Shown here in pieces: positions 3,647 to 50,841 of a stretch of DNA of 64,000 nucleotides; within the stretch, counting starts at the first letter, position 1; the number at the start of each line of letters is the position of its first letter. Below the pieces are notes generated by a model. The model saw nothing but the letters and a program-made list of their open reading frames with translations. It made no database searches and was not told the DNA's origin. The position numbers and the translations under genes are program-made. The DNA is from Patescibacteria group bacterium (GTDB taxonomy: Bacteria; Patescibacteriota; Patescibacteriia; UBA2196): assembly GCA_028748975.1 (NCBI GenBank), contig JAQTPI010000003.1:33064-97063 (forward strand), read 5' to 3'.

Positions 3647-4192
3647 TTACGCCGCGGCTGTTTTCGCTTTCTTGCCGGCTTTAATCTTAATTATTTCACC
3701 CAAATATCTGATGCCTTTGCCTTTGTAAGGTTCTGGTTTTTTAACGCGCTTAATTTGCGCGGCTGTTTCACCGACTAAAAATTTATCATTACCTTCAATA
3801 GTGATGACATTTTTATCAACGGAAATTTTGATGCCGTCGGGAATAGGAAATTTGACTTCATGAGAATAACCCACCGCCAGCATTAAATTTTTACCGGAGA
3901 CGGAGGCGCGATAACCGACGCCGTTGATTTCCAGCTCTTTTTTAAAACCAACAGTCACGCCCAAAATCATGTTGTTCACCAGCTGGCGCATGGTGCCCCA
4001 AAGCGCACTCACGTATTTTTCTTCTTGAAGAACCACCATATTTATTTCTTTGTCCTTGAGTTCCAAACCGATGGCGGGATGAAGTTTCAGAGTCAATTCG
4101 CCTTTGGGTCCTTTGACCATAACCAAACCAGCCTCGACTTTCACTTCGACTTTGTCCGGAATTTGAATTATTTTTTTACCTACTCTGCTCAT
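3647..4192 (-). CDS. rplF: Ribosomal protein L6
   Basis: MSRVGKKIIQIPDKVEVKV…GPKGEL… is the typical L6 two-domain sequence. Confidence 0.9.
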   Translation of the reverse strand: MSRVGKKIIQIPDKVEVKVEAGLVMVKGPKGELTLKLHPAIGLELKDKEINMVVLQEEKYVSALWGTMRQLVNNMILGVTVGFKKELEINGVGYRASVSGKNLMLAVGYSHEVKFPIPDGIKISVDKNVITIEGNDKFLVGETAAQIKRVKKPEPYKGKGIRYLGEIIKIKAGKKAKTAAA

Positions 4193-4342: not shown

Positions 4343-4771
4343 CTAATATATCTCACAAACCACTTCCCCGCCCAAACCTTTTTTGCGAGCCTCATTATCA
4401 GTCATTAAACCTTGGGAGGTGGAAATGATGGCCATGCCCCAACCATTCAAAACTTTAGGCAGTTTATCTTTAGCGGCATAAACGCGCTTGCCGGGCTTAC
4501 TGACTCTTTGAATGCTCTTAATTTTACCTTCACCATCAGCATCATAAATTAGCCCCAATTTAAGCTGTTCAAATTTAATTCCACTTTCTTTGCTTTTTTT
4601 AATCTTAAGATCTGGTTTGATGATGGACACTTCTTTCACCCAGTTTTCGCGCTCCAAAACCTTTAAGACAGCCAATTTTAATTTTGAATACGGCAAAACC
4701 ACTTCAGCTTTTTTGACCAGCTGGGCGTTTCTGATTCTTGTTAACATGTCGGAAATTGGATCAGTATGCAT
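4343..4771 (-). CDS. rpsH: Ribosomal protein S8
   Basis: MHTDPISDMLTRIRNAQLVKK… is the canonical S8 N-terminus. The start is placed at the internal Met, since 9 upstream codons lie in repeat DNA. Confidence 0.85.
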   Translation of the reverse strand: MHTDPISDMLTRIRNAQLVKKAEVVLPYSKLKLAVLKVLERENWVKEVSIIKPDLKIKKSKESGIKFEQLKLGLIYDADGEGKIKSIQRVSKPGKRVYAAKDKLPKVLNGWGMAIISTSQGLMTDNEARKKGLGGEVVCEIY

Positions 4772-4910
4772 AATATTCTTTAAAGCACCAAATTTCAAAT
4801 TCCAAATAACAAACGGTTGGCGCGGAGCGCCAATTGTTTAGAATTTAGAATTTGGTGCTTGGAATTTGTTTGTATTTTGTAATTTGTTATTTGTAATTTA
4901 CTATTTTAGT

Positions 4911-5096
4911 TTACCAACTTGATTTGGTTACTCCCGGCAACTCATTGCGATTAGCTAACTCACGAAAACAGATGCGGCACATATTGAAATCGCGCATGTA
5001 GCCGCGATTGCGGCCGCAACGCCAACAGCGCCTCACTTTGCGAGTGCTGAATTTTGGTTTTCTTTTAGATTTAGCAATTTGAGCTTGAGTGGCCAT
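4911..5096 (-). CDS. rpsN: Ribosomal protein S14, type Z (zinc-binding)
   Basis: [48 protein letters not shown]: 61 aa with a CxxC…CxxC pattern. The longer ORF N-terminus lies in a GC-hairpin element. Confidence 0.9.
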
Positions 5097-5254
5097 AGAT
5101 TTATTTTTATATGTAACCTGCCCTGAGGAGCGGGAGCGACGAAGGGCCCCCTGCGAACCTGGGTAAGTTATATTTTGCAAGTTTTACCCGCTTGCTACGG
5201 GGTCCTTCGTCCTCCTTACCCGCTGGCAAGTCGTCCTCAGGACAGGCTAATAAT
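5097..5254. repeat. GC-rich palindromic element (cctgaggag…cgacgaagg / ccttcgtc…cctcagg)
   Basis: A long inverted repeat, ccctgaggagcgggagcgacgaagggcc…ggtccttcgtcctccttacccgctggcaagtcgtcctcaggacagg. Related copies are at 20310-20345 and 25000-25050. Confidence 0.75.
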
Positions 5255-8661: not shown

Positions 8662-8803
8662 AATAATATAAAACAAATTTTCACAGATAGAGCGCGGATT
8701 TTCACAGATACACAGATTGTTTCACCTTTATACTTCTCTATTAGAGATAAATAAATCTGTGTATCTGTGTTGATCTGTCTGGTATCTGTGTCTATTTGTT
8801 TGG

Positions 8804-9415: not shown

Positions 9416-9558
9416 AGAGATAAACAAATTTTCACAGATAGAGCGCGGATTTTCACAGATACACAGATTGTTTCACCTTTATACTTCTCTATTAGAGATA
9501 AATAAATCTGTGTATCTGTGTTGATCTGTCTGGTATCTGTGTCTATCTGTTTTGATTA

Positions 9559-10970: not shown

Positions 10971-11402
10971 TTACACTCCCTCATAGATCGATATTTTATC
11001 ACCCATTTTTAATGTCACCACTGCTTTCTTCCAATTTTTCAGGTGTCCCACGGAACGGCCGGAACGGCTGGTTTTGCCTTTGACATTAACTATATTAATT
11101 TTAAGCGGTTTGACATTATAAGCGTGTTCAATGGCTTTTCTGACTTCGGATTTATTGGTGCGCGGCGAGACCTCAAAAAGATATTTGTTTTCCGCGCCGA
11201 TTAGAGCGCCTTTTTCCGTAACGAGCGGACGAATCAAAATTTGGTGCGCCATCAGATGGCCATATTTTTTTTCATGCTTATCTTTTTGTTCGCGATTGGC
11301 AATCACGCCAACTTTTTCTTCCTTTTTTTTATCAACTTCAACCACGCCTGCCGCGGCAGATTGCTTTTCTTCCTTTTTAGGTTTTTTGCTGAAAATGCTC
11401 AT
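10971..11402 (-). CDS. rplW: Ribosomal protein L23 with a K/E-rich N-terminal extension
   Basis: …HQILIRPLVTEKGALIGAENKYLFEVSPRTNKSEVRKAIEHAYNVKPLKINIV…. Confidence 0.85.
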   Translation of the reverse strand: MSIFSKKPKKEEKQSAAAGVVEVDKKKEEKVGVIANREQKDKHEKKYGHLMAHQILIRPLVTEKGALIGAENKYLFEVSPRTNKSEVRKAIEHAYNVKPLKINIVNVKGKTSRSGRSVGHLKNWKKAVVTLKMGDKISIYEGV

Positions 11403-16249: not shown

Positions 16250-16996
16250 TTATTCAATCGGTTCCACCAAAAATTCATCCACGTCTTTTTTTTCATCTTT
16301 TACTTCCCCATTCTCCGCGTCAGCTTCAATTATTGGCAAATCTTTATTTACTTCGGCTGGTTTTTCCGCTTCATAATTAACGTCGCCGACAGTTGTTTCA
16401 TTTAGCCACTCATCGTCCAGGGGTTCATCGTCTACTGGAAAAACCGATTCATCCGCTGTGATTGTTTTTTCTTTAAAAACATCGGGTAGATCTTTTTCCT
16501 CGTCCATCTTTAAATCTTTGTCCATAAAATCTTCTGGCCATTTGGGCGGAGTCCAACTTGCCTCGCCAAAAGGCGGGTTTTCATCATCATCGTCATCATC
16601 AGCCAAGGGGTCAAAAGTTTTTTTGCCGAAAATATCTTCCTCGCGATCGCCAAACAAATCTCGGTCATGATTAAAATCATGATTAAAATCAGTATTATTA
16701 TCAAACGGCAGACGCGGCATAAAATCTTCACCTAAATCACGGGGCGAGAAAAAATCCATGTCGGTGCCGAGTCCGATTTCGCGCTGGGCCTGTTTCCACA
16801 AAGAAATTTCGCGGTTGACGCGGTTTAAAATTTCTTCCTCGGTCATGCCGGCGTAATCGGTTTGGTCCGAAACCATTTCTTCATATTTTTCAAGTGGCAC
16901 AATGGCAAATGGTTCGCCAAATTCCGGCACGACAATCATCTTGTCGCCGGTGCGCTTGGCCAGGTCTATGATTTTTTCAAGTTGAGGGGAAAACAT
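16250..16996 (-). CDS. Highly acidic (D/E-rich) hypothetical protein between fusA and tuf
   Basis: 248 aa with DDDDDDENPPFGE and many DxxxD runs. No family recognised. Its location inside the str operon is atypical. Confidence 0.5.
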   Translation of the reverse strand: MFSPQLEKIIDLAKRTGDKMIVVPEFGEPFAIVPLEKYEEMVSDQTDYAGMTEEEILNRVNREISLWKQAQREIGLGTDMDFFSPRDLGEDFMPRLPFDNNTDFNHDFNHDRDLFGDREEDIFGKKTFDPLADDDDDDENPPFGEASWTPPKWPEDFMDKDLKMDEEKDLPDVFKEKTITADESVFPVDDEPLDDEWLNETTVGDVNYEAEKPAEVNKDLPIIEADAENGEVKDEKKDVDEFLVEPIE

Positions 16997-41951: not shown

Positions 41952-42440
41952 TTAAGAAAATGAGGGAAGTTTTTTGGCCAAAACTACTACCACACAAACT
42001 TTTTTCCTGGGCGGCCATTCCAACTGCAAGCCAGCTTGACGGCAGGTCTTTGTTAGATTCACACCCATAGCTTCCGCGTTCATGAGGACGGTATAACCCG
42101 CTGGCGTTCTTTTTTGAATAAAATTACGTAAAACAGCGCGCAAATGACCTTGCCAGTGGCGCGAATTGCGCAGCGCCCGCTCACTCCAAGCTGGATGCTG
42201 TTTTTTTCTTAATTTCAGATAAGCTCCAAAATCAAAAATGACCGCGGCTAAAAATATTTGGGGCTGAAAAATTTTGGAAAAAAATTCCGCTTGCGGCGGG
42301 CAACCAATTTTTTTGCCAAAGTTGGGGCAACCGCGCGGATGCTCGCAGTATGGAACCAGGCACAAACGTGGTATTTTTTTATTAACACTGGCCCTGACTG
42401 GCCCTAAAAAAACCGTTTTCTTTTTGATGGCCGAAAGCAT
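41952..42440 (-). CDS. Hypothetical Cys-rich protein (CxxxxxxCPxxGxxxxCPP)
   Basis: ORF only. A possible metal-binding N-terminus. Confidence 0.35.
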   Translation of the reverse strand: MLSAIKKKTVFLGPVRASVNKKIPRLCLVPYCEHPRGCPNFGKKIGCPPQAEFFSKIFQPQIFLAAVIFDFGAYLKLRKKQHPAWSERALRNSRHWQGHLRAVLRNFIQKRTPAGYTVLMNAEAMGVNLTKTCRQAGLQLEWPPRKKVCVVVVLAKKLPSFS

Positions 42441-42442
42441 GA

Positions 42443-42889
42443 TTAATTCCTCCTAAAACGATTAATTTTGTCATGGTTTTTCAAAATACCATTTAGTTTC
42501 TCGGCTGCCTGATTTTCAAATTCATCAACTAATTTTTGGATTTCCTTTTTCAATTTTTTTATCAATTTGGCATTTTTCTGATAACGAAACAATTCGCCCA
42601 AATTGAATTGGCGCCAAAATCTTCCCTCAAGATAGTCCTGGAGAGCGACGGAGGTGGAGGGGTTTGCCAGCCAGAAATCGCAGGCTCCCGGCCCTAATTT
42701 TTTATCTTTTTTATTACGGAATTCAAAACGAGAATGTCCGTACGCCCGCACAAAAATGACGCCTTTTTTATTCTGAATAACAATTCTATTTAAGCCAATG
42801 ATGGAAGAAAGAGAAATAATTAAACTCTTTCCTGGGCCAACTGAAAAGTCGGTATGCTGGGTGAGACGGTTTTTTTTAGCCATAAACAT
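42443..42889 (-). CDS. Hypothetical protein
   Basis: ORF only. Its end abuts the downstream gene start (42440 to 42443), so the two are probably co-transcribed. Confidence 0.35.
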   Translation of the reverse strand: MFMAKKNRLTQHTDFSVGPGKSLIISLSSIIGLNRIVIQNKKGVIFVRAYGHSRFEFRNKKDKKLGPGACDFWLANPSTSVALQDYLEGRFWRQFNLGELFRYQKNAKLIKKLKKEIQKLVDEFENQAAEKLNGILKNHDKINRFRRN

Positions 42890-43141
42890 CCTCCTGTTGA
42901 TTCGCTATGGAAAGGTTCTATTTTATTTTATATTTCTGCCCAAAACTCGGGGGGTGGAATTCCTTCTCCCCCGTCGCTCGCCGTGCCTGCCGGCACAGGG
43001 CTCGCTTCCTCCTCCGAAGCCCGGGTCATAAAAAATATGAAGCAGTTCATATTTTTTCTGTACCCTTCGAATCCCACTTAATTTAAAAAATATAAATTAC
43101 AAATTAAATAATTATTTTTAAATTTTTAATTCTGCCCAAAG

Positions 43142-43213
43142 CTCGGGGGGTGGGATTCGAACCCACGACCAATTGATTAACAGTCAACTGCTCTACCACT
43201 GAGCTACCCCCGA
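43142..43213 (-). tRNA. tRNA-Asn (anticodon GTT)
   Basis: The reverse complement UCGGGGG…GCUCAGUGGUAGAGC…CUGUUAA…GGGUUCGAAUCCCAC…CCCCCGA G forms a cloverleaf. Confidence 0.8.
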
Positions 43214-43240: not shown

Positions 43241-43582
43241 TTATAAACCGCTAAAATTAACTATTTGTTCCCAGTCAATCAAAAAAACATCATATAATTT
43301 TCTTAAATCTTCAATGGAATAAAAAACGCGGCTATCACTGACGATCCTGACGAGCTTATCAACAATAATTCTGTTTGCCTTTATTTTTTCTCCCTTTATA
43401 ATCATTTCTGGCATTACCGACAATTCTTCTTTTATCAAACCGGGTTCAATTTCTGTGTTTAATTTTTCCAATTCTTCCGCAAATTTTACTTTAGCTAATT
43501 CAATAAATTTAGGGTCCAAAATACTCTTGATTTTCTCCTTATTTTTTTCTCTCATTAATTTTAATTTTTCTTCAAAAGACAT
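43241..43582 (-). CDS. Hypothetical protein
   Basis: ORF only. Confidence 0.3.
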   Translation of the reverse strand: MSFEEKLKLMREKNKEKIKSILDPKFIELAKVKFAEELEKLNTEIEPGLIKEELSVMPEMIIKGEKIKANRIIVDKLVRIVSDSRVFYSIEDLRKLYDVFLIDWEQIVNFSGL

Positions 43583-45063: not shown

Positions 45064-46398
<1,335 letters not shown>

Positions 46399-46957: not shown

Positions 46958-48730
46958 TTAGTTTATTTTTGCAAATTCCGAAAGTAGTTGGTTCGCCAAA
47001 TTCATATCACCCGCTTTTTCCGCTAATTTTATTTTTTCCATTAAGTCGGCGCGTTTGCCCGAAGCAATGGTTTGGCGCAAAAATTCAATATCGCCGTCAA
47101 GTTCGTGCGCCAGTTCCCTTTCGCTCATTTCTTCAAACTCGGTTTGGCCTAAAAGATTTAGCGCGTCAAAAAATTCCACTATTTTAGGATTTTTGGCTTC
47201 TTTAATCTCATATTCCAGGGCTTCAAAATTGAGTCCATTGTATTTAGTATAATGGATTACGAGCGTTTTGTAAAATTCCCGGCTCATGTTTTCAAAGTGT
47301 TCTTCGCCCAAAACATTGGCGGCGCGGCCCAAAAAATCAAAACGGCGCATCATCAAGGCCAAGAGGCGCTCGGCAATCATTTCCCGACGGGAAAATTTCT
47401 GCGGAGCAACTTGATTTTGTTTACTCACCGCCATGGGCTTACCCGCCAGTTTATTTTTTATTTTAGCGATTGATTGCGCCAGCATATGCTCATCAATTTT
47501 TATCAATTCAGCCAAAAGTTTGAGATAATGATTTTGCGCGATCGGGTCGGTTAGGCGCGCAATCCAGGGCAGAAGAATTTTAGCCACGATTCGTTTTTGT
47601 TCCAAATTATTCAAATCACGATTAGCCACGGCTTTATCAAAAAAATATTCCATAAAATCATCGGCCTCGGCCACTGCTTTCTGCCAAGCCACGGCATCTT
47701 TTTGCGCCAGTTCATCAGGATCTTTCACACCACTCGGCAAAATTATTACTTTGATATTCATTTCCTCCTGCCAGAGCATTTCAATTCCGCGCACTCCGGC
47801 TGCGGCACCGGCAGCGTCAGCATCAAAACACAAAGCCACGTTTTTACTATAACGTTTGATTAATTTGATCTGGTCAAAAGTCAAAGAAGTGCCGGAAACG
47901 GCCACCACGTTTTTGGTGCCGGCTTGCGCCGTGCCGATGACATCCATGTTGCCTTCCACCAAAATTGCCAAATCATTTTCTTTAATGGCGTTTTTGGCTT
48001 TATCCAAACCATAAACCACTTGGGATTTGTTATAGATTAAAGTTTGCGGGGTATTAATATATTTGGCCGATTCTTTATCATCCATGGCGCGCGCAGTAAA
48101 ACCAACCATATTGCCGTGGTGGTCGGCAATAGGAAACATCAAGCGATGGCGGAATCTTTCATAATACGGCGGCTGGCCGGTATTTTTTGGCACCGTGAGA
48201 CCGGATTGCATAATTTCATTATCGGAAAATCCTTTGCTTTTCAAAAAACCGGAAAGATGAATCCAGGAATTGGGCGCGTAGCCGAGATGAAACTCGGCAA
48301 TTGTTTCCGGGGTGAGATGGCGTTTTTCTATTAAATATTTTAGCGCTACTTCGCCAACGGGCGCGTGGAGTTGATTTTGAAAAAATTCCATGGCGCTGCG
48401 GTGCATGTCCATTAAACGGGTTTTTAGTGTAGTAACTCTAGAATCCTGTTTGACCAATTGCACGCCGGCTTTTTCGGCTAAAATTTTTAGAGCTTCGGGA
48501 AATTCAATTTTTTCCATTTTTTCCAAAAAAGAAAACATGTCGCCGGCTTCGCCGCAGCCAAAACATTTAAAAAACTGCTTTTCTCTGGAGACCATAAAAG
48601 ACGGGGTCTTTTCCGTGTGAAAAGGACAAAGGCCCTTGAAATTGGCGCCGGACTGGCGCAGTGGCACAAATTCGGAAATGATGTCCACAATATCCAGGCG
48701 GGATTTGATTTCGTCAACGTTGGAGAGCAT
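46958..48730 (-). CDS. dnaG: DNA primase DnaG
   Basis: CHC2 zinc finger (CPFHTEKTPSF…CFGCG), Toprim (…EGNMDVI…) and a C-terminal helicase-binding region. Confidence 0.9.
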   Translation of the reverse strand: MLSNVDEIKSRLDIVDIISEFVPLRQSGANFKGLCPFHTEKTPSFMVSREKQFFKCFGCGEAGDMFSFLEKMEKIEFPEALKILAEKAGVQLVKQDSRVTTLKTRLMDMHRSAMEFFQNQLHAPVGEVALKYLIEKRHLTPETIAEFHLGYAPNSWIHLSGFLKSKGFSDNEIMQSGLTVPKNTGQPPYYERFRHRLMFPIADHHGNMVGFTARAMDDKESAKYINTPQTLIYNKSQVVYGLDKAKNAIKENDLAILVEGNMDVIGTAQAGTKNVVAVSGTSLTFDQIKLIKRYSKNVALCFDADAAGAAAGVRGIEMLWQEEMNIKVIILPSGVKDPDELAQKDAVAWQKAVAEADDFMEYFFDKAVANRDLNNLEQKRIVAKILLPWIARLTDPIAQNHYLKLLAELIKIDEHMLAQSIAKIKNKLAGKPMAVSKQNQVAPQKFSRREMIAERLLALMMRRFDFLGRAANVLGEEHFENMSREFYKTLVIHYTKYNGLNFEALEYEIKEAKNPKIVEFFDALNLLGQTEFEEMSERELAHELDGDIEFLRQTIASGKRADLMEKIKLAEKAGDMNLANQLLSEFAKIN

Positions 48731-48911
48731 AAATTAGCCGTTGTCATCCCGAACCCCGCGTAGCGGGGTGATGGGATCTCGTTAAGGATTCCATCGGTCC
48801 GATTATCATCGGACCTCGGAATGACGTATTTAAACGTTTCTTCTACTCCAATTTTACCACCAAAATTTGAAATTGACAACTGCTCGTTTTTGAGATAATA
48901 TTAAGATAATA

Positions 48912-49001
48912 TGGAGAGGTGGCAGAGTGGTCTAACGCGACAGTCTTGAAAACTGTTAGGGATGAAAGTCCCTCGTGAGTTCGAATCTCACCCTCTCCGC
49001 C
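48912..49001 (+). tRNA. tRNA-Ser (anticodon TGA)
   Basis: GGAGAGG acceptor, anticodon loop CUUGAAA, a long variable arm, T-arm GUGAG-UUCGAAU-CUCAC and an encoded CCA. Confidence 0.85.
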
Positions 49002-49027
49002 AAAATCAAAATTAATAAAATAATCTT

Positions 49028-49351
49028 ATGGATTTAATCATCTGCGTTACATTAACTTGGTTTCTAGTGTATACCTTTTCATATTCTCCAAAGGCTCGGG
49101 TTAGAATATTATTAAAGCAAATGTTTAATATTCCTATTAAATTATCTAGAGCAAAAAGAGAAATAGGCGACGAAAATAATTATTTTTATGATATGTGTAA
49201 AAAAGCACTTGATATGAGATACAAAACAATAATTGCTCTGCTTGATTTATATTTTGATCCAGTAAAGGATAAAGGATATATAGAAGAAAAAATAAACTAT
49301 GGCAGAACATTATTAAATAATGCAGAAAATATAATGTTAAATAAAAAATAA
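49028..49351 (+). CDS. Hypothetical protein in an AT-rich island
   Basis: 107 aa with an N-terminal hydrophobic segment. The region is ~28% GC against ~43% for its surroundings. No SD. Confidence 0.4.
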   Translation: MDLIICVTLTWFLVYTFSYSPKARVRILLKQMFNIPIKLSRAKREIGDENNYFYDMCKKALDMRYKTIIALLDLYFDPVKDKGYIEEKINYGRTLLNNAENIMLNKK

Positions 49352-49355
49352 ATTT

Positions 49356-49748
49356 ATGTTAGATAAATTTGATATAGACATGGCCGAATCTAGAAAAGGA
49401 AGGGATAGGTTTCACTGGTACCTTGCTACTCTTTCGGCCGCAACATTAGCGTTAGTTATAAAATTTGTAAGTGAGATAAATCCAATCAATGATCTTGTGT
49501 CGATTTGTTATATAAAAATTTCTTTGTGGTGTCTTGTGGGTACAATAATTTTATCTCCAATAAGAAATTTATTATCTTATGATATAACGAGTTTGATTGC
49601 TCAATATGAGGATACAAAAAACGAAAATTATTGGCAAAGAGCGAAGCAAAAGACGTATATTAGAAATCTGGCCGGCGAATTTTCTATAATACTATATTTA
49701 ACAGCTATTATTATGCTTGTTCTTTCCTGCAATGAACTTTTTTTATAA
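49356..49748 (+). CDS. Hypothetical 3-4-TM membrane protein in an AT-rich island
   Basis: 130 aa. It is 4 bp downstream of the previous ORF. Confidence 0.4.
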   Translation: MLDKFDIDMAESRKGRDRFHWYLATLSAATLALVIKFVSEINPINDLVSICYIKISLWCLVGTIILSPIRNLLSYDITSLIAQYEDTKNENYWQRAKQKTYIRNLAGEFSIILYLTAIIMLVLSCNELFL

Positions 49749-49764
49749 TAATTGTTTTCAAACC

Positions 49765-49855
49765 GGAGAGGTGGCTGAGCGGCTGAAAGCGGCAGGTTGC
49801 TAACCTGTTATATGGCCTTAAAACCATATCGCGAGTTCAAATCTCGCCCTCTCCG
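49765..49855 (+). tRNA. tRNA-Ser (anticodon GCT)
   Basis: GGAGAGG acceptor, anticodon loop UUGCUAA, a long variable arm and T-arm CGAGUUCAAAUCUCG. No CCA is encoded. Confidence 0.8.
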
Positions 49856-49876
49856 TTTTGAATATAAAACTCATCA

Positions 49877-50488
49877 ATGGCTGATTTTTTATTACAATAT
49901 ATCACGCATTTGGTGGCGACCATGGGCTATGGCGGAATCACGGTCTTAATGGCCATGGAAAGCATGATTTTGCCGGTGCCAAGCGAAGCCGTCATGCCAC
50001 TGGCCGGATTTCTTTGGTTTTCGCACCAGATGTCATTTTGGGCCATTGTGCTCTTCTCTACTCTTGGCACCATTATCGGCGCCGGAATTTCCTATGTCAT
50101 GGGTTTTTATGGTGGCCGGCCCTTGGTGCAAAAATACGGAAAATATTTTTTACTCAATAATCATCATTTAGAAGTGACGGAAAAATTTTTTGCCAAACAC
50201 GGCGAAAAAGCGATTTTTTTCAGCCGGTTCATTCCGGTGGTGCGGCATTTAATTTCCATTCCAGCTGGCGTGGGCAAGATGAAAATTTGGAAATTTTGCG
50301 TCTATACTCTTGTCGGCGGCGCCATTTGGAATTCCATCCTCACCATTACCGGCTATCTACTCGGCAGCCGCTGGACGGAAATCAGAAAATTCGGAGAAGT
50401 TATTGATATTATCTTAATTATTTTAATTATCGCGGCGATTATTTATTTGATTTATCGGAAAAAACATAAGAAAATTATAAATGTATGA
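49877..50488 (+). CDS. DedA/SNARE-associated family membrane protein
   Basis: …GYGGITVLMAMESMILPVPSEAVMPLAGFL… and …FSRFIPVVRHLISIPAGVGKM… are DedA signatures. Confidence 0.8.
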   Translation: MADFLLQYITHLVATMGYGGITVLMAMESMILPVPSEAVMPLAGFLWFSHQMSFWAIVLFSTLGTIIGAGISYVMGFYGGRPLVQKYGKYFLLNNHHLEVTEKFFAKHGEKAIFFSRFIPVVRHLISIPAGVGKMKIWKFCVYTLVGGAIWNSILTITGYLLGSRWTEIRKFGEVIDIILIILIIAAIIYLIYRKKHKKIINV

Positions 50489-50841
50489 TGGAACCAAGAC
50501 CTAAAAATATAGAAGAGGATTTGGAAGAAAGCCGATTCAAGGATTTAAAACGCAAATGGGTGGAATTATATAAATTATCACCCCATTCTTTTAGTCATGA
50601 TTCGGAAAAATTTGCGGCAACTTTACGAAAGAATTTCAAAGAGGATAAAGAAAAAGATAAGGATGGCGGAACAGAAAAGGTTTGGGAATTTGAAAAATAT
50701 CGACTTTTTCATCTTTTGGCAGGCAGCACTTATAACAATGATTTTAAAGAATTTGATTTCCCCGGTCACTTGGTGGAAAATTTTATCAACGATGAATACA
50801 AAAAAATGTTTAAAGAAAGAGAAGAAGCTAGTTTTGAATAA
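50485..50841 (+). CDS. Hypothetical charged protein, overlapping the DedA stop (ATGATGG)
   Basis: ORF only. It is followed by the terminator aaccgctttttatagcggttttt. Confidence 0.4.
   Translation: MMEPRPKNIEEDLEESRFKDLKRKWVELYKLSPHSFSHDSEKFAATLRKNFKEDKEKDKDGGTEKVWEFEKYRLFHLLAGSTYNNDFKEFDFPGHLVENFINDEYKKMFKEREEASFE

Follow-up and report, generated by a model that had tools for sequence, protein, structure and literature searches.

An apparent fast-turnover cargo slot between two tandem tRNA-Ser genes of a Patescibacteria chromosome

Islands of accessory genes beside tRNA genes are known products of integrative elements, as exemplified by the tycheposon islands of Prochlorococcus, whose targets include tRNA-Ser(tga) (bioRxiv 10.1101/2020.12.28.424599), and by the tRNA genomic islands, or tDNA islands, of the Islander type (PMC4383910). 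Such islands are the closest known kind of the arrangement described here, in which two small genes occupy the spacer between tandem tRNA-Ser genes of a Patescibacteria group bacterium. Our literature searches returned papers on tRNA islands and tRNA introns, none of which describes this slot. As in the tycheposon and Islander cases, a streamlined genome carries compositionally odd, variable cargo next to a tRNA gene, this cargo is absent from relatives, its content differs between close relatives, and tRNA genes of the same lineage are accompanied by partial tRNA copies or integrase-bearing elements (loci L001, L009 and L016/17, and the tRNA-Asn gene of the window). Unlike those islands, the slot measures 0.76 kb and holds two genes rather than kilobases of DNA, and it carries no integrase, replication module or att repeat. 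Moreover, its cargo lies between tandem tRNAs, fills the spacer exactly, is always co-oriented and is apparently promoterless.

Three other systems offer partial parallels. In the Escherichia coli operons thrU-tyrU-glyT-thrT-tufB and tyrT-tpr, tRNAs and protein genes are transcribed together and tRNA processing sets the protein messages free, as is predicted here. Those protein genes are conserved residents, whereas in the present operon the resident is dedA and what lies between the tRNAs can be exchanged. Phage tRNA clusters are interspersed with small ORFs and morons, and thus resemble the slot in having short orphan ORFs packed between tRNA genes, but the slot is chromosomal (its neighbors are dnaG, rpoD, dedA and comF) and we found no phage homologues. 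Finally, integron gene cassettes might be likened to the slot cargos in that promoterless units would be swapped at a fixed site behind a resident upstream promoter. The borders of the slot are nevertheless tRNA genes, making this likeness an analogy only, and no conspicuous imperfect inverted repeat of the attC type is seen at the 3′ ends of the two ORFs.

The window, which is the whole stretch of 64,000 nucleotides that we analyzed, contains the following features at this locus:

45064-46398, minus strand: rpoD, left flank
46958-48730, minus strand: dnaG, left flank
48873-48901, plus strand: predicted sigma-70-type promoter, TTGACA-17 nt-TAATAT, the best site in the region (10/12)
48913-49002, plus strand: tRNA-Ser(UGA) with encoded CCA (ARAGORN), left border of the slot
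48913-48999: Rfam RF00005 match for tRNA-Ser(UGA), 55.7 bits
49003-49763, plus strand: insert (slot cargo), 761 bp, 27.5% GC
49028-49351, plus strand: ORF1, 107 aa
49356-49748, plus strand: ORF2, 130 aa
49752-49867, plus strand: leader-trailer inverted repeat of tRNA-Ser(GCU), arms 49752-49771 and 49848-49867
49764-49856, plus strand: tRNA-Ser(GCU) (ARAGORN), right border of the slot
49765-49855: Rfam tRNA match for tRNA-Ser(GCU), 58.9 bits
49877-50488, plus strand: dedA (VTT domain; Pfam VTT_dom, 4.8e-23)

The tRNA-Ser pair of the original prediction is thus recovered by both ARAGORN and Rfam, although its predicted coordinates were off by 1 nt, and an Rfam search of 48.5-50.1 kb found nothing besides the two tRNAs. 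The two predicted ORFs of 107 and 130 aa, separated by 4 nt and the second of them multi-TM, were confirmed, and the genes are exact database matches to the locus tags PHT40_01895 and PHT40_01900. On the right, dedA begins 21 nt past the end of tRNA-Ser(GCU) and is followed by a conserved 118-aa ORF and comF; dedA is also kept in lineage L009.

The claim that this island of about 28% GC departs from its neighborhood was borne out, since no other stretch of 761 bp in the 64 kb has a GC content as low as the insert, which lies about 3.9 sd under the mean of 42.0% (sd 3.8%). The GC content at third codon positions is likewise low, at 19% for ORF1 and 26% for ORF2 versus 46-50% for dnaG and dedA. 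Low GC alone is nevertheless a weak sign of foreign origin, because the resident 118-aa ORF at 50485-50841 (plus strand; no family match) has about 30% GC and yet is conserved, being kept in L009 as the C-terminal half of a 215-aa protein and in L010 as 98 aa. Both ORFs are indeed without a Shine-Dalgarno motif, as had been noticed, but this is not distinctive: the motif is missing from 39 of the 41 other window genes checked, and the A/T-rich start context of ORF1 and ORF2 (..ATTT ATG) is the same as in other window genes. The lack of Shine-Dalgarno motifs is thus a genome-wide habit and no sign of foreign origin.

The slot was compared among seven lineages (the window and six relatives), all of them metagenome assemblies from one family-level clade; the loci of the relatives were reached via DnaG homologues. 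The same two tRNA-Ser genes adjoin dnaG in all six related lineages, with slot contents as follows:

Window, DnaG 100%: slot of 761 bp, ORF1 and ORF2
L009, DnaG 89% identical to the window: slot of 605 bp, 170-aa AAA_33/KTI12/Zeta-toxin-like kinase
L010, DnaG 81-84% (84% global): slot of 663 bp, MazG-like protein of 118 aa and a 96-aa ORF
L011/12/13/27, DnaG 60%: slot of 38 bp, empty
L014/15, DnaG 57%: slot of 522 bp, NUDIX gene
L016-18, DnaG 57%: slot of 24 bp, empty
L020, DnaG 55-56%: slot of 931 bp, 266-aa ORF, unknown

The five occupied lineages therefore hold five unrelated cargos of about 0.5-0.9 kb and one or two genes each, which share no similarity with one another. All are co-oriented with the tRNAs, leave nearly no non-coding DNA in the spacer, and have a GC content of 26-30% in hosts of 31-42%. 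No DNA similarity was found between the window insert and the same slot in the relatives. Homology between the window and L009 ends at tRNA-Ser(UGA) and restarts 10 nt before tRNA-Ser(GCU). L014/15 and L016-18 have DnaG proteins that are 91% identical, yet one slot is filled and the other is empty. L014 shares the first 18 nt of the spacer (AGTAATGTGAAAA..TATAT) with L016, its sister with an empty slot, and in L014 the NUDIX ORF comes right after them, a precise insertion of little more than the ORF. A further search of metagenomes with a tRNA-Ser(UGA) pattern returned the contig of L009 itself and one additional contig with an empty slot, and a scan of GTDB genomes with DnaG gave only matches of 33-34%, which are of no use for synteny.

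Because slot contents differ between sisters whose DnaG proteins are 89% and 91% identical, the insert is not ancestral. The check that had been proposed supports the insertion: relatives exist in which the two tRNA-Ser genes are adjacent without an insert, 24-38 bp apart (L011/L012/L013/L027 and L016-18), and in none of the relatives do the same two genes, at similar GC, sit between these tRNAs. As judged from these sequences, the site is a fast-turnover slot whose contents appear to change faster than DnaG diverges by 10%.

The tRNA-Ser(UGA) of the window is 95% identical to those of L009 and L011, all differences falling in two acceptor-stem pairs where they are compensated, and its tRNA-Ser(GCU) is 99% identical to the L009 copy. 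In L014 (4822-4910) and L016 (1383-1469), the bodies of tRNA-Ser(UGA) are 68% identical, the flanks are identical and DnaG is 91% identical, such that a replacement of the tRNA gene itself seems to separate the two. In L009 an extra 146-aa ORF (4712-5152, minus strand) separates the conserved promoter from tRNA-Ser(UGA). It encodes a DGAHRHEA (ParB-like) motif and shows that this operon has a second position for cargo.

The order promoter, tRNA-Ser(UGA), slot, tRNA-Ser(GCU), dedA suggests an operon. In each of the seven lineages tRNA-Ser(UGA) is preceded by a conserved sequence of the form AAATTGACAA-N17-TATAAT-like, and the promoter at 48873-48901 presumably drives the whole tRNA-cargo-tRNA-dedA unit. 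A pattern search found no plus-strand terminator between the tRNAs, the ORFs and dedA. The close placement of dedA after tRNA-Ser(GCU) indicates that a transcription unit shared with downstream protein genes is normal for these tRNAs. Weaker promoter-like sites at 49078-49107 and 49661-49690, within the insert, speak against a promoterless cargo. On either side of tRNA-Ser(GCU), leader and trailer form an inverted repeat with arms of 20 nt (85% complementary) that lengthen the acceptor stem by about 13 bp, and L009 carries the same repeat as a perfect 24-nt version with a matching extra C/G; this repeat may be a processing helix. We therefore envision, on the basis of sequence features, that the cargo has no promoter of its own and would be transcribed by read-through from the conserved tRNA promoter, that RNase P and 3′-end processing would excise the flanking tRNAs and thereby free a bicistronic ORF1-ORF2 mRNA, and that translation would proceed in the SD-independent manner usual for this genome. 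The products would be a membrane-anchored helical protein (ORF1) and a protein with three transmembrane segments (ORF2), acting as independent accessory proteins.

Some other repeated sequences of the window are worth recording. A GC-rich imperfect hairpin at 48743-48828 (GTCATCCCGA...CCCCGCGTAGCGGGG...TCGGAATGAC), which separates dnaG from the tRNA promoter, is also present in L009 and has no Rfam match, and GGGATGAC/GGAATGAC motifs resembling it precede the genes that end at 16996, 24404 and 36609. Identical copies of the 22-nt sequence TCCGCGCTCTATCTGTGAAAAT lie at 8677-8698 and 9428-9449, upstream of two adjacent genes, and the related ATCTGTGAAAA lies upstream of others, including the genes ending at 11402 and 13588; the 22-nt sequence is a repeated regulatory or mobile motif.

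Neither protein had been assigned to a recognized family, and this assessment stands. No significant match to ORF1 or ORF2 was obtained in Pfam or NCBIfam, none in PADLOC at E ≤ 1 and none in PHROGs (best E = 0.01), and a PDB sequence search with both profiles yielded only a designed coiled coil. For ORF1, a search of 5.8 billion protein clusters gave only two homologues, P0003 (67% identity) and P0004 (61%), making a family of three members. Relative to these two homologues its dN/dS is 0.17 and 0.08 (Nei-Gojobori), values that identify ORF1 as a real gene under purifying selection. ORF1 has one short N-terminal hydrophobic helix that falls below the Kyte-Doolittle threshold of 1.6, and its AlphaFold2 model (pLDDT 78.8) has helices at residues 2-18, 21-46, 51-75 and 82-104. 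It is thus predicted to be a membrane-anchored three-helix-bundle protein, and fold searches returned generic helical bundles only.

The genomic contexts of the ORF1 homologues are informative. P0003 is located in L001-L005 as cargo of an integrative element (L001 1788-9310, also in L002-L005) that encodes a large serine recombinase, the end of whose gene overlaps tRNA-Trp. This element also carries a rolling-circle Rep, a MazG-like fragment, the Shedu protein SduA (PADLOC, 2.7e-68) and about ten small ORFs; the ORF1 homologue is one of these, and several encode small membrane proteins. In L001 the element has 29.5% GC versus 35.4% for the adjacent core genes. ORF1 is 79% identical to the element at the nucleotide level over 306 nt, and it is the sole match between the element and the window (tblastx). 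The gene for P0003 lies two genes after Shedu, and that for P0004 precedes a 248-aa ORF unrelated to the partners of the other ORF1 members. In L002, the ORF1 homologue is 4 nt from the gene for a small multi-TM protein, which we considered as a possible relative of ORF2, but a comparison shows the two to be unrelated. The downstream partners of the ORF1 homologues were also compared with each other and are likewise unrelated.

A word-indexed protein search with ORF2 recovered only the query itself, while a full HMMER scan of 1.84 billion representatives gave 15 full-length homologues of 126-146 aa at 23-47% identity. These remote, full-length homologues establish ORF2 as a real gene, which by sequence belongs to a small uncharacterized family of putative 3-TM proteins. 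Hydropathy places three hydrophobic segments at about residues 23-41, 46-73 and 104-130. The family has in common the three transmembrane segments and an ExR...F.W motif, and its conserved residues are R13, F19, L31, F37 and N71 (in an SP.RN motif). None of the 15 family members matches the SLATT models of NCBIfam and Pfam at E ≤ 0.1. The AlphaFold2 model (pLDDT 64.6) is too poor for fold searching. Homologues of ORF2 are found alone in accessory regions, often after tRNAs: one stands third behind tRNA-Gln among a series of genes for small accessory enzymes (L021), one is beside a Bsp6I-type restriction-modification (RM) system and an SLFN_AlbA_2 protein (L022), one lies 171 nt after two tRNA-Ser genes that have duplicated 3′-end and flank repeats (L025), and one follows a NUDIX gene (L028). 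In L025 (1158-1800), the 3′ end of tRNA-Ser(GCU) and about 130 nt of its flank are duplicated around the second tRNA-Ser, just upstream of the ORF2 homologue; ARAGORN reads the anticodon of this second tRNA-Ser as 'act'.

Recombination at tRNA genes is evident in this clade, judging from four observations. In the window, a direct repeat of 47 nt (83% identical; 42916-42962 and 43112-43158, 196 bp apart) consists of the 3′ end and trailer of tRNA-Asn (43141-43213, minus strand), and resembles an att-type scar left behind by an element that had integrated at this gene. In L016/L017 a large serine recombinase abuts tRNA-Asn, in L009 the intact tRNA-Ser(GCU) is surrounded by two fragments of such a gene, 24 nt from its 5′ end and 48 nt from its 3′ end, and L014 and L016 differ in tRNA-Ser(UGA) as described above. 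The L009 fragments (3784-4102) constitute a second tRNA-Ser(GCU) copy without an anticodon arm that flanks the intact tRNA, and may reflect scars of nested integrations, a tiny element that carries a tRNA, or an artefact of assembly.

The surroundings of the window tRNA-Asn gene hold further unusual genes. A 113-aa ORF with 28.7% GC (43241-43582, minus strand) separates tRNA-Asn from an FKBP gene; it matches no Pfam family, the relatives lack a homologue, and L010 has a GIY-YIG gene there. This site is possibly a second tRNA-adjacent cargo slot. Just downstream of tRNA-Asn are two genes (41952-42889, minus strand) for proteins of 148 aa and 162 aa (DUF2284), which among 44 genes checked are the only ones with an AGGAGG Shine-Dalgarno sequence, and these two genes may be foreign.

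Taken together, we consider it probable that this lineage gained the insert by horizontal transfer, as cargo specific to it, and that the slot is a fast-turnover site within a tRNA operon of a Patescibacteria chromosome. The source of the cargo would be the pool of AT-rich mobile and accessory genes in these bacteria, and entry would have been by recombination at or beside the tRNA genes, with no integrase kept. It is possible, if doubtful, that the insert is instead the decayed stump of a tRNA-targeting element with a serine recombinase and a rolling-circle Rep, from which integrase, Rep and att were lost. An ORF1 homologue is indeed the cargo of just such an element abutting tRNA-Trp, serine recombinases abut tRNA-Asn in L016/17, and partial tRNA copies occur in L009 and at the window tRNA-Asn. 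However, the insert retains no partial tRNA and no recombinase or Rep remnant, and ORF1 is all that the element matches in tblastx. The direct repeats of tRNA 3′ ends that might have been anticipated did not materialize at this insert, where no att-like repeat or displaced partial tRNA was found and nothing tRNA-like is repeated apart from the two complete tRNAs. No integrase is present among the insert genes, both of which lack a Pfam match, and tblastn with the L001/L016 serine recombinases, Rep and SduA found nothing in the 64 kb, in a screen confined to these queries. That all five cargos are integrase-free, 0.5-0.9 kb long, compact and co-oriented also argues somewhat against repeated decay, as five independent decays would be unlikely to produce this pattern. 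In an unlikely but more radical scheme, the tandem tRNA-Ser pair would be an integrase-free cassette platform where promoterless single-gene units of the Patescibacteria mobile pool are swapped in and out, the highly conserved tRNA genes serving as portable homology arms; the units would be expressed from the strong tRNA promoter and their mRNA released by RNase P and 3′-end processing. A chimeric metagenome assembly, with a fragment of a lower-GC relative spliced in through the conserved tRNAs, is highly improbable. Near-identical tRNA genes of distant relatives could collapse in an assembly graph and the cargo GC equals that of low-GC relatives, but L009, an independent assembly, also has low-GC cargo in a 42% GC host, both acceptor stems of the window pair perfectly, tRNA-Ser(GCU) with 10 nt of its leader is 97% identical to L009, and any donor would need the same slot anyway. 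Scarcely credible is an ancestral, vertically inherited arrangement or a pair of spurious ORFs in an AT-rich spacer, for which only the intact ORFs speak: the slot is empty or otherwise filled in every relative examined, ORF1 has a dN/dS of 0.08-0.17 and ORF2 has its 15 full-length homologues.

What the cargo does is a separate matter. The original prediction likened the two genes to small membrane-protein pairs serving abortive infection, toxicity or defence, or to phage morons. A single two-gene toxin-antitoxin, abortive-infection or defence system would fit the 4-nt gap and the small membrane character of both proteins, the position of an ORF1 homologue two genes after Shedu, that of an ORF2 homologue beside an RM system and SLFN_AlbA_2, and the 4-nt spacing to a multi-TM gene in L002. 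We regard this as improbable, however, since homologues of the two never co-occur in three ORF1 and five ORF2 contexts (8 in all), the multi-TM neighbor in L002 is unrelated to ORF2 and PADLOC gives no match. The notion of a conserved pair therefore fails, and ORF1 and ORF2 are best seen as two separate cargo genes. The chance that they are phage morons or a prophage remnant is slighter still. Small promoterless genes beside tRNAs are common in phage genomes, but PHROGs offers nothing better than E = 0.01, tblastn against 50,697 phage records gave no match for ORF1 or ORF2, IMG/VR gave no match to ORF1 or ORF2, to the tRNA, or to the cargos of the NUDIX, kinase and MazG types, and the flanking genes are those of a chromosome (dnaG, rpoD, dedA and comF). 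The moron proposal was thus not upheld. Our best guess, held at low confidence, is that ORF1 and ORF2 take part at the cell envelope in conflicts with phages or other mobile elements, for example in exclusion or as membrane effectors. The genes near ORF homologues or in sister slots (Shedu, RM, Schlafen-like, MazG, NUDIX and zeta-like kinase) hint at such conflict, and the hint is circumstantial, as is the abortive-infection, toxin or defence reading in general.

We favor the reading of the insert as acquired cargo, which carries several implications. For annotation, the absence of Shine-Dalgarno motifs and a low GC content need to be judged against the habits of the genome itself. Patescibacteria have tiny genomes in which the gain and loss of accessory genes are little understood, and the tRNA-Ser slot is a compact, well-bounded hotspot that can serve as a marker for strain-level gene flux in this group. 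It yields candidate conflict or accessory genes, namely ORF1, the ORF2 family and the MazG-like, NUDIX and kinase cargos. Moreover, it offers a model in which tRNA genes give foreign genes both a recombination target and signals for expression and processing. If the cassette-platform reading were true, the slot would represent a functional analogue of integrons made from tRNA genes in bacteria with tiny genomes.
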